From Candidatus Altimarinota bacterium (GTDB lineage: Bacteria; Patescibacteriota; Gracilibacteria; UBA1369): 16,902 nt of DNA. The stretch lies in contig JBAZYK010000016.1 in assembly GCA_041659405.1 (NCBI GenBank), positions 1 through 16,902 on the forward strand, read 5' to 3'. The position numbers and the translations under genes were made by a program. Every line of letters begins with the position of its first letter. Within the stretch, counting starts at the first letter, position 1. Below are positions 10,360 through 13,345 of this stretch, piece after piece. The notes below the pieces were generated by a model. The model ran no database searches and was not told the origin of the DNA. It saw only the letters and a list, made by a program, of their open reading frames with translations.

Positions 10360-10860
10360 ATGGCAATGTCATTAAATCGGGCTCAGTTGATTGGAAATTT
10401 GACGCGTGATCCTGAACTTCGTCAAATTCCCGGTGGTCAAACTGTTGCGACTTTTTCGATCGCGACAAATTTTAGCTGGACTGATTCAAGTGGTCAAAAA
10501 CAGGATAAAACAGAGTTTCACAATATTACAGCATGGAGAAAATTGGCTGAAATCGTTGGTCAATTTATGAAAAAGGGGAGCAAGGTTTATGTAGAAGGCC
10601 GCATCCAGACTCGTGATTGGGAAGGTGAAGATGGCGTAAAGCGTTATCGTACAGAAATTGTTGCCGACAACGTAATCATGCTTGATCGTAAAGGTGCCGG
10701 TACAGGTGAAGGCGGCGAAGCTCCAGCTTTTAGTGGCGGTTTCCGTAAATCCGGATCAGTAAAATCAGCAGAACCTCAGGCTAATTCCGAAGTTTCCGAG
10801 GTTTCCGAATCTCAGGCTGCTCCTGCGGAAGAAGTTGCAATCGACGATTTGCCATTCTAA
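10360..10860 (+). CDS. ssb: Single-stranded DNA-binding protein
   Basis: OB-fold N-terminus (NRAQLIGNLTRDPELR...FHNITAWRKLAE...VYVEGRIQTRDWE), a Gly/Ser/Ala-rich linker, and the canonical acidic tip DDLPF. Confidence 0.95.
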   Translation: MAMSLNRAQLIGNLTRDPELRQIPGGQTVATFSIATNFSWTDSSGQKQDKTEFHNITAWRKLAEIVGQFMKKGSKVYVEGRIQTRDWEGEDGVKRYRTEIVADNVIMLDRKGAGTGEGGEAPAFSGGFRKSGSVKSAEPQANSEVSEVSESQAAPAEEVAIDDLPF

Positions 10861-10886
10861 CCTCAACCTCAAAGGTTGCCCGCAGT

Positions 10887-10900
10887 TGTGCGCGCGCACA
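10887..10900. repeat. Perfect 14-bp palindrome TGTGCGCGCGCACA
   Basis: Seen directly in the sequence, 27 nt after the ssb stop. Its half-site resembles that of the 18-bp palindrome at 13201-13218. Confidence 0.5.
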
Positions 10901-10934
10901 GATCAATTTTGAACTGTGTCCCTAAATCCACATA

Positions 10935-10972
10935 GAAAAAGAGCGTCACCTTAAGTTTAAAGATGACGCTCT
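10935..10972 (-). terminator. Intrinsic terminator that works only on the - strand
   Basis: The 9-bp stem AGAGCGTCA (10940-10948) / TGACGCTCT (10964-10972) is followed by TTTTT only when read on the - strand. On the + strand it is followed by CTGTCTCC. Confidence 0.7.
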
Positions 10973-11437
10973 CTGTCTCCCTGATCTCACCTTACTTGCA
11001 TAAAGTAGACCAGAAAGTCTTGTAACAGGAGCCCGACATGTTTCCTGGTACCGCCTTTCGGTGTGCCGAAAAGCTTTCTCCCTACCATTCTTTGGTGTTT
11101 TATTTTGTGACGATTTTCACCATCGTCTTTTTTGTATTTTTGTGTTTTTGATTTTCTCCCGGCAATTAAGCGAGAAGAAGATTTGTTTTTGGTAAGTTTG
11201 TTTTTGATTTTTACCTTCCGGCGGTGAATCGATTTGAATCGCCTACAGGAGGCTACTTTTTGGTGAGACATTAGTCGGATGTCTGCATCGAAAAGTAGGG
11301 AGAAGAAGGTTCTGAGAGTCCGTGCGGTCAACTGTGCTGCGTGTTAAGTGTTGCTGCGAAAGATTGCGCACTTTATTTTCAGCCACTTCTTTTCGCTACT
11401 TTTGCGATGACTTTCTAGTTTTTAAGGATCGGGAAAT
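10935..11437 (-). ncRNA. Candidate non-coding transcript of about 500 nt, class not recognised
   Basis: It runs from the strong - strand promoter (11472-11444) to the - strand-only terminator. Several hairpins are present: 11284-11266, 11127-11109, and 11074-11053. The last has a U-G pair that would be a C-A mismatch on the + strand. The central A-rich tract carries CAAAAACAAA at 11191-11182 and 11206-11197, and CAAAAACACA at 11150-11141. The only long frame, 10987-11331, starts with TTG and is low-complexity and Lys/Arg-rich. Confidence 0.4.
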
Positions 11438-11443
11438 CTTTAA

Positions 11444-11472
11444 ATTATAACATTTTTTCATAGGTTTTACAA
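11444..11472 (-). promoter_or_regulatory. Strong promoter, TTGTAA-17 bp-TATAAT with an extended -10 TG (- strand)
   Basis: Read on the - strand: TTGTAA (11472-11467), a 17-bp spacer ending in TGT, then a perfect TATAAT (11449-11444). Confidence 0.65.
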
Positions 11473-11669: not shown

Positions 11670-12284
11670 ATGGCAAAGCCAATAAATCCATCTTATAAAG
11701 GCAAACTGGTGCTGATTTCCGGCCCTTCCGGGGTTGGAAAAGGCACGGTGATCAGTGCTCTAAAAAAGCAATATTCGCAGTTTGTTTATCCGATTTCGGA
11801 AACAACCCGTCAGATTCGTCCAGGTGAAAAGGATGGCGAGGTTTACCATTTTATAAGCAAGGAAGCTTTTCTGCAGGCCAAAGCCGCCGGTGACTTTTTA
11901 GAGGTGGCAACGGTTCATCAGGATAATTATTATGGAACGCTCAAAAAACCAATTATGGATGCGCTGGAAGCCGGTCGTGTGGTAGTGCGTGAGGTTGATA
12001 TGCAGGGGTTTTTGTCGATTAAAGCCGTTATTCCTGCGGAAAATTTAGTGTCGATTTTTTTGGAGGCCGAGAATATGGAGGAGCTTCAGAAAAGAATTGC
12101 CCACAGAGGCCAATTACCCGCAGAGGAACTGGCGCGCCGCATGGAAAGTGCCAGCAAGGAGCTGGCGATTGCGCACATGTATGATTACCGCGCAAAAAGC
12201 CTGGAAAACCAGATTGATCGTTGCGTGGCCGACGTCGAAAAGATAATTTTGGACGAGGCTGAAAAAGGTGGGTTGCGGATTTAG
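11670..12284 (+). CDS. gmk: Guanylate kinase
   Basis: P-loop GPSGVGKGT, the TTRxxRxGExDGxxYHF segment, and 204 aa collinear with the family. Confidence 0.95.
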   Translation: MAKPINPSYKGKLVLISGPSGVGKGTVISALKKQYSQFVYPISETTRQIRPGEKDGEVYHFISKEAFLQAKAAGDFLEVATVHQDNYYGTLKKPIMDALEAGRVVVREVDMQGFLSIKAVIPAENLVSIFLEAENMEELQKRIAHRGQLPAEELARRMESASKELAIAHMYDYRAKSLENQIDRCVADVEKIILDEAEKGGLRI

Positions 12285-13271: not shown

Positions 13272-13345
13272 TGGGGATTCGCCAAGTGGTAAGGCACCGC
13301 CCTCTGGAGGCGGCATCGGGGGTTCGAATCCCTCATCCCCAGCCA
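13272..13345 (+). tRNA. tRNA-Gln(CUG)
   Basis: 74-nt cloverleaf. Its parts are acceptor TGGGGAT/ATCCCCA, D arm GCC-AAGTGGTAA-GGC, anticodon stem CCGCC/GGCGG with loop CTCTGGA, T arm GGGGG-TTCGAAT-CCCTC, discriminator G, and an encoded CCA. It closely resembles E. coli tRNA-Gln as I remember it. Confidence 0.95.

Follow-up and report, generated by a model that had tools for sequence, protein, structure and literature searches.

The spacer between ssb and gmk in Candidatus Altimarinota bacterium raises the question of what is transcribed from it and what the product might do. We addressed this question in contig JBAZYK010000016.1 of assembly GCA_041659405.1, analysed over its whole stretch of 16,902 nucleotides (hereafter, the window). 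An earlier note, made from the letters of the window, had proposed an orphan transcription unit on the minus strand of the spacer, with a protein-titrating RNA as one hypothesis and a highly basic protein as the alternative. We are inclined, with moderate confidence, to read positions 11438-10935 of the minus strand as a gene of its own, present in single copy and inherited vertically, that encodes a structured non-coding RNA of ~500 nt, here called the gmk-ssb RNA, in Candidatus Peregrinibacteria/Peribacteria and related orders of Gracilibacteria, a class of the Candidate Phyla Radiation (CPR).

A minus-strand non-coding unit between ssb and gmk

The RNA gene is flanked by ssb (10360-10860, plus strand) and gmk (11670-12284, plus strand). 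A pattern scan returned, on the minus strand, a sigma-70-type promoter of the form TTGTAA-17-TATAAT with an upstream TG at 11472-11444 (-35 TTGTAA, 11472-11467; extended -10 TGTTATAAT, 11452-11444), from which transcription would start at about 11438, at the beginning of a conserved GAU. At the other end, the scan and the comparison of homologues both indicated an intrinsic terminator (10974-10935, minus strand) made of a 15-bp stem (10974-10938) and a U run. Both signals had been read in the earlier note. The numbers of promoter-like sites (3 vs 2.2 expected) and terminator-like sites (4 vs 2.9 expected) in the scan are, taken alone, near chance; we accept the two signals as real because they recur at the same relative places in homologues, which repeat TTGnnn...TGCTATAAT followed by GAUUU at the same position and carry the TGnTAnAAT promoter and the terminal hairpin in matching places. 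The 503-nt transcript has a folding z-score of -8.47 (vs 100 dinucleotide shuffles), and numerous G-U pairs in the alignment of homologues would be C-A mismatches if read on the other strand, which is why we assign the RNA to the minus strand. A short, separate terminator-like hairpin on the plus strand lies 3' of ssb (10886-10901), so that ssb and the RNA gene end at different hairpins and do not overlap.

The spacer does contain the open reading frame (ORF) that had been put forward as the alternative (10987-11331, minus strand; 114 aa from a TTG start). It is open in this genome and its stop lies just 5' of the terminator, two points that speak for a region encoding a highly basic protein of 94-114 aa. 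The frame thus exists; the protein fares less well. No Pfam match was found for the 114-aa product, and among 55 homologues the frame is not conserved: across the conserved core it stays open for a median of 48 codons, reaches at least 90 codons in 15% of them, and spans 54 codons in the same-genus homologue, while the other two frames are no better. In addition, the lengths of the variable regions differ irrespective of multiples of three, and substitutions keep base pairs, not codons. The product is very basic because the RNA is A-rich. We treat the frame as a chance ORF and not as a gene; the coding reading is hardly credible and is already refuted by the comparative sequence data. Promoter, terminator, hairpins and A-rich tracts, by comparison, are kept in orthologous ssb-gmk spacers, and the helices covary, in agreement with the orphan non-coding unit first suggested. 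Here, we show that the locus is an independent minus-strand non-coding transcription unit with its own extended -10 promoter and intrinsic terminator, and without a conserved reading frame.

A covarying core closed by a hub strand

All elements described below lie on the minus strand. Over 69 distinct rows of the alignment, a structure of 37 pairs had 83.8% of cells paired, compared with 76.5% in shuffles, and a covariation score of 0.226 vs 0.115; none of 500 shuffles attained the former value, and slid controls did not exceed 0.085. The center of this structure is a hub strand, A2 (CUUCUUCUCCCUACUUUUCGAUG, 11308-11286), the most conserved block of the RNA with a near-invariant CUCCCUACUUUUCGAU, and the hub sequence CCUCCCUACUUUUCGAU has three alternative pairing partners, namely the leader strand A1, the strand A3 and the strand D.

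Strand D (AAAGAAUGGUAGGGAG, 11093-11078) pairs with the 5' half of A2 and closes the core in the RNAalifold consensus. This helix is paired in 98.6% of cells. Three of its pairs change from CG to UA, a fourth is a mix of CG, AU and UA, and compensations extend to the class level: CUUCCUAC/GUAGGAA (L125, L136), CUCUCUAC/GUAGAGAG (L131) and CUCCUAC/GUAGGAG (L132). The 3' half of A2 (CUACUUUUCGAUG) pairs with A3 (ACCAAAAAGUAG, 11264-11253) in 71-92% of cells, again with class-level compensations (UGUUUG/CAAACA in L124, UUUUUGAUGG/CCAUUAAAAA in L118 and L126, UCUC/GAGA in L135). Between these two strands stands the H2 hairpin (AGACAU/AUGUCU, 11285-11265; loop CCGACUA, 11278-11272), whose stem is 96.5% paired with 17-34 double changes per pair. 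We show that the core is closed by the long-range helix between the 5' half of A2 and D, with the hairpin formed by the 3' half of A2, H2 and A3 adjacent to it.

Just 5' of D sits an H-type pseudoknot (11127-11094), in which the hairpin GACGAU..AUCGUC (11127-11109) base-pairs through its loop GGUG (11121-11118) to CACC (11097-11094), with an A-rich linker (11108-11098) in between. Pairing reaches 92.9% in the hairpin, where 22-23 rows change GC to AU, and 99-100% in GGUG:CACC, where one pair shows 4 double changes. Farther downstream, the H5 hairpin (GGUACCAGG...CCUGUUAC, 11052-11022) presents a loop, GUCGG (11037-11033), that is complementary to the H2 loop, and its stem is represented by 49 distinct sequences in the 53 homologues in which a script found an H5 hairpin. 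The two loops change together (CGACUA/UAGUCG, CGACUG/CAGUCG, CCAACA/UGUUGG, CCCAACU/AGUUGGG, CGGCUA/UAGCCG, UCGACUC/GAGUCGA). At least 6 Watson-Crick complementary bases joined a genome's own H2 and H5 loops in 31 of 57 genomes, as opposed to 9.5% of cross-genome pairs, and the H2-H5 covariation score was 0.237 vs 0.163 (0 of 500 shuffles) with loops extracted automatically and blind to complementarity. These two distant hairpins therefore make a covarying 6-bp loop-loop contact.

Large ribozymes typically share the size, the near-invariant core nucleotides, the pseudoknots and the long-range tertiary contacts seen here, and the housekeeping-like distribution of the RNA also fits a catalytic role, either as a ribozyme or as a catalytic ribonucleoprotein's RNA subunit, in which the active site would lie in the pseudoknotted core. 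Yet no similarity to any Rfam ribozyme family was seen, RNase P RNA is encoded elsewhere in the genome, and the context suggests no substrate or chemistry; we therefore rate a catalytic role as quite unlikely.

Two A-rich strands combine conserved sequence with the lack of a pairing partner. The first (UAAAAAUCAAAAACAAACUUACCAAAAACAAAU, 11213-11181; consensus AAAACAAAAACAAACUCAACAAAAA) is kept across the order and the class, and no partner for it was found in the sequences of either; the second (CAAAAACACAAAAAUACAAAAAA, 11150-11128; consensus AAAAACAAAAAUAAAAAAG) is near-invariant among the 28 seed sequences. The repeats reported earlier are all in place, with CAAAAACAAA occurring twice (11206-11197 and 11191-11182), CAAAAACACA once (11150-11141) and the 13-mer AAAATCAAAAACA twice (11211-11199 and 11155-11143). 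It was from such repeats that a protein-titrating sponge had been proposed, in which tracts of the CAAAAACAAA type would capture an RNA-binding protein with a preference for A-rich single strands, in the manner of CrcZ for Hfq/Crc or of RsmZ for CsrA. The likeness lies in the A-rich motifs, which are repeated and sit between hairpins in stretches read as single-stranded, and the two long strands have fixed C positions, are conserved in sequence and lack a partner. However, the gmk-ssb RNA is a multi-domain fold of ~500 nt with pseudoknots and long-range helices, much larger and more deeply conserved than these sponges; the bulk of its conserved information resides in a complex fold that a sponge does not need, and GGA-in-loop repeats are absent. 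Neither Hfq (PF17209) nor CsrA (PF02599) was found in the 98.5%-complete genome, in searches whose positive controls worked. Class-wide single-copy conservation and fixed synteny are likewise unlike fast-evolving small RNAs of the sponge type. The specific mechanism of a CrcZ- or RsmZ-type sponge is thus not supported, and we hold a titrating RNA to be improbable in general. Being conserved in sequence, the A-rich strands probably bind something, and a partner other than Hfq or CsrA is possible.

The remaining elements are hairpins whose positions are kept while their sequences vary. V1 (11385-11309), enclosed by A1 and A2, ranges from ~20 to >180 nt between genomes. V2 (11252-11214), read from the alignments, is a bulged hairpin closed by CCUCC and GGAnGG; it was paired in just 57% of cells of the model-fitted alignment, a low figure because the region aligns poorly. 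H4 (UUCUC...GAGAA with a variable loop, 11180-11151) occurs in most homologues with differing sequences and was 61% paired in the fitted alignment. V3 (CUUUUCGG-CACA-CCGAAAGG, 11077-11053) has counterparts at the same place in homologues, unrelated in sequence and length. Motif searches placed the three hairpins of the earlier note exactly, in H2, the pseudoknot and V3, respectively: AGACAT/ATGTCT within 11285-11265, GACGAT/ATCGTC at 11127-11109 and, within 11077-11053, the CACA-looped stem of 9 bp. The 3' domain (11020-10975) consists of a helix, GACUUUCUGGUC/GAUCAGGGAGAC, around a short hairpin, and it is bigger in most relatives, where it takes the form GCUCUUUGAUC...GAUCAGAGAGC and encloses a CCUCAGC...GCUGAUAGG hairpin. 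In most members beyond the genus of the window, a long terminal stem, UGGGGCGYC...GGCGCCCCUUAUU, takes the place of the simple terminator (e.g., L036, L046, L047, L062 and L065), and it contains a conserved internal CCACCUCUG ... CAUGUG motif.

Two further possibilities were tried. A conserved helix joining the leader to the 3' domain, as drawn in the minimum-free-energy fold of the window, was rejected, with a mean duplex score of 8.64 vs 8.68 for shuffled sequence in 50 homologues. A genome scan for trans targets, in the form of 10-mers complementary to D or resembling the partners of D, gave scattered chance matches only.

A leader that competes for the hub

The leader strand A1 (GCAAAAGUAGCGAAAAGAAG, 11405-11386) is complementary to the whole of A2. 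In 67 homologues, the best A1:A2 duplex had a mean score of 11.3, compared with 7.7 for shuffled upstream sequence; A1 covaries with the variable 5' flank of A2, and in several genomes the two strands form duplexes of 17-21 nt with at most one or two mismatches. When homologues were folded with the leader included, the leader helix was the minimum-free-energy structure in 14 of 20 and lay within 3 kcal/mol of the ground state in the remaining 6, among them this window. We show that the A1:A2 helix and the core fold (A2:A3 plus A2:D) are mutually exclusive and that all three pairings covary. The near-invariance of A2, A1, A3 and D can be explained by a hub that must satisfy several partners.

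Such an arrangement suggests a maturation switch. The leader helix would form first in transcription and mask the hub; processing or displacement of the leader would then hand A2 over to A3 and D, and the mature fold would lock. The main alternative is intermolecular pairing. Covariation cannot separate pairs within one molecule from pairs between molecules, and a single hub strand could not accommodate all of its covarying partners at the same time. Kissing loops of ROOL and GOLLD, at first taken for tertiary contacts on the basis of covariation, were later seen to bridge separate molecules (PMC12286853). By this precedent, the gmk-ssb RNA could be an RNA-only homo-oligomer like ROOL, GOLLD and OLE, in which the H2-H5 pairing, and perhaps one of the hub pairings, would join copies into a dimer or cage. 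Its conserved A-rich segments would also be in keeping with such an assembly, given that A-A and A-minor contacts hold complexes of the ROOL/GOLLD type together (PMC12286853). On the other hand, neither sequence nor model comparison links the RNA to OLE, ROOL or GOLLD, it is smaller (0.5 kb) than GOLLD, and it is chromosomal, syntenic and single-copy, with no phage or tRNA-gene association. We consider such oligomerisation unlikely.

The leader also carries a boxA-like element (GAUCCUUAAAAAC, 11430-11418) that homologues conserve directly after the start site. Relatives have UGUUCCUUGAAAA or UGUUCUUUAAAAUC at this place, and the RNA leader form can be written as UGUUCYUURAAAA, which is ~1 base apart from the boxA of the 16S rRNA leader in this genome and in G078 (UGUUCUUUAACAUU). 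The transcript thus bears at its 5' end a boxA resembling the organism's own rRNA boxA, a hallmark by which boxA-dependent antiterminated transcripts are recognized. We propose that this boxA would recruit a Nus antitermination complex and allow the long untranslated transcript to escape Rho, as in rRNA operons. The resemblance to rRNA operon leaders with boxA, where antitermination depends on NusB/NusE, includes the position of boxA directly 3' of a strong promoter, the untranslated transcript, and a leader strand that pairs with the mature RNA sequence, as in pre-rRNA. Unlike these leaders, the gmk-ssb transcript is a 0.5-kb orphan RNA, and Nus binding and Rho protection are in its case inferred. 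CRISPR arrays, too, are among the boxA-led untranslated transcripts.

A second orphan unit of the same design was observed at locus L155 (G000:C12:45058-45800, plus strand), which comprises a TTGACA-17-TGGTAATAT promoter, a boxA-like GAUCCUUGAAAAUUAG, ~0.7 kb of helix-rich sequence and a terminator. Its DNA is conserved in 7 of the 18 family genomes tried and is without an Rfam match; it is probably another unclassified large RNA.

Distribution, known RNAs and a candidate role

In a BLAST search of the spacer against 40 relatives, matches covered 22 of 24 genera within the family as well as 7 of 16 families beyond it, with the strongest blocks at about 11305-11247 and 11150-11076. The pattern CACCAAAGRAYRGKWGGGAG, taken from the best block, picked ~35 assemblies among 185,579 species genomes, and the assemblies carrying it are named Candidatus Peregrinibacteria, Peribacteria or Gracilibacteria. 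We then relied on a covariance model, R1 (226 positions, window 11307-11076), which was trained on the order and whose E-values are rough. Within the order, R1 gave exactly one strong match per genome in 95 of 151 genomes. Six families were positive in all or nearly all genomes (21/22, 3/3, 8/8, 13/13, 9/9 and 10/11). Across the class, 47 of 151 sampled genomes were positive, other orders included (7/7, 9/13, 5/12 and 4/7, the 7 of 7 being the genomes of one family). Outside the class, R1 found weak A-rich matches only, at most 33.7 bits, in which the hallmarks were absent. One weak match of 119 nt in another class of the phylum (L139, G365:C6:5774-5892; 25.6 bits) pairs an A2-like strand with a D-like one (CACCAAA..GGCAUG) and has an A-rich linker; this ambiguous match may represent a distant, miniature relative or may have arisen by chance.

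The neighborhood of the RNA is equally stable. In most genomes its 3' end is convergent with the ssb C-terminus (…DDLPF), and gmk, recognized by its P-loop (GPSGVGKGT), is divergent from the RNA promoter, class-level loci included. A single copy in conserved synteny fits a vertically inherited core gene and does not fit a mobile element.

The RNA matches no family that we could identify. At Rfam 15 gathering thresholds, the window holds nothing except tRNA-Gln (CUG; 13272-13345, plus strand), which is also its sole ARAGORN match. The cmscan search that the earlier note had recommended returned no known family for the spacer even at E<=10 with all 4227 Rfam families; the best score, for BTnc005, was 15.6 bits against a gathering score of 174.8, and OLE, ROOL, GOLLD, raiA and HEARO were not matched. 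A literature search found no description of a gmk-ssb RNA.

A further reading is a very divergent copy of a universal RNA, i.e., transfer-messenger RNA (tmRNA), signal recognition particle (SRP) RNA, RNase P RNA or 6S RNA, and this idea has some support in the assembly. Neither ARAGORN nor RF00023 detected tmRNA, yet SmpB is encoded (smpB, C10:50272-50748), and SRP RNA was not found in this genome. The gmk-ssb RNA even resembles tmRNA (RF00023) in size, in its A-rich linkers between pseudoknots and in a UUUCGA-containing 5' block, but it has neither a tRNA-like domain nor a tag reading frame. A divergent tmRNA, a candidate prompted by SmpB without detected tmRNA, was rejected: ordinary tmRNA genes, scoring 95-147 bits within the family, occur in relatives away from the locus of the gmk-ssb RNA, and no tmRNA was found in the spacer by RF00023 at E<=10 or by ARAGORN. 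In this assembly, tmRNA is missing or truncated. A weak partial RF00023 match lies at G000:C15:26567-26658 (plus strand), 200 bases from the contig end, where the tmRNA gene may have been cut by the assembly. We also rejected an unusual SRP RNA, since neither RF00169 nor RF01854 matched, no candidate for the domain IV motif was present, and no Ffh or FtsY was found. The SRP54-type GTPase domains of Ffh and FtsY, the Ffh M domain and SRP RNA were not found in genome G000, where a six-frame scan for DTAGR returned ribosomal protein L31 only; SRP54 GTPase was likewise found in none of 41 relatives, none of 151 class genomes and not in 120 of 121 phylum genomes. Many CPR bacteria lack the SRP subunits (PMC8080830), and with the proteins missing too there is nothing for an SRP RNA to bind. 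Finally, the spacer matches neither RNase P RNA (RF00010) nor 6S RNA (RF00013), which are encoded elsewhere in the genome (C6:80282-80714, 143.7 bits, and C11:55396-55551, 50 bits, respectively). The universal-RNA reading, which we regard as extremely improbable, is already refuted by these two genes and by the tmRNA loci of relatives.

The closest comparison is with the large 'ornate' non-coding RNAs of bacteria, namely OLE (RF01071), ROOL, GOLLD, raiA and HEARO. Like them, the gmk-ssb RNA is hundreds of nucleotides long, has many covarying helices with pseudoknots or kissing loops and near-invariant single-stranded nucleotides, is transcribed from its own promoter to its own terminator, is confined to one bacterial lineage, and has a function that is not deducible from context. 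It differs from them in its occurrence in the CPR class Gracilibacteria (order Peribacterales), in a boxA leader with a leader strand that competes with the core, and in being strictly single-copy and syntenic, whereas they are tied to phages, tRNA genes or partner-protein genes. We think it probable that the gmk-ssb RNA represents a new class of large, housekeeping-grade structured RNA, a core gene across Gracilibacteria (Peribacterales and sister orders) with a leader-controlled folding switch, which scaffolds a ribonucleoprotein or assembles into an RNA-only multimer through loop-loop contacts like ROOL, GOLLD and OLE. Of these roles, a stable scaffold or ribonucleoprotein RNA with leader-controlled folding appears the most likely. 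The mature RNA would be a stable, abundant housekeeping scaffold, and its conserved A-rich single strands would serve as a binding platform for a protein or nucleic-acid partner.

Several points weigh against this interpretation. The partner is hypothetical, and the ends of the transcript, its abundance and any processing are inferred from the DNA. The switch between leader and core is a proposal built on covariation and thermodynamics, and with the leader helix as the predicted ground state in most folded homologues, A2:D might never form in cis. The pair counts come from an alignment that was fitted to the model and leans towards it, and the genomes are related metagenome assemblies of uncultured organisms; we know of no cultured member of the order. 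Moreover, R1 was negative in four families of the order (0/10, 0/3, 0/22 and 0/3; 0 of 38 genomes), with two more families represented by a single genome each, and direct reading of two families without R1 matches, f6 and f4, revealed a divergent version or a different RNA in the ssb-gmk spacer.

The spacers of these two families were as follows. In f6, the spacer of G029 (L142) is divergent and shorter but retains AAAAACAAAAACAAAAU together with a GGAGAGA/UCUCUCU pairing and an ACCUCU-bearing terminal stem; R1 probably missed a reduced homologue here. In f4, the spacers of G057 (L145) and G027 (L146) hold a different RNA of ~170 nt, with a promoter, a boxA-like leader, a long closing helix and a terminator, which has no Rfam match and is unlike the 6S RNA of G000. 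These spacers imply that the true distribution is wider or more varied than R1 shows.

Several uses follow from the gmk-ssb RNA itself. A hub strand with three covarying partners is a compact natural example of its kind, and the covarying long-range loop-loop contact makes the RNA attractive for cryo-EM and for RNA structure prediction. The RNA can also serve as a sequence marker of the class when the binning of short contigs is checked. Core, single-copy, deeply conserved large RNAs are rare, and rRNA, RNase P RNA, tmRNA, SRP RNA and 6S RNA all serve central functions. That a lineage with tiny genomes and without a signal recognition particle devotes 0.5 kb and a strong promoter to an RNA with near-invariant blocks suggests that an important part of CPR cell biology has yet to be described.

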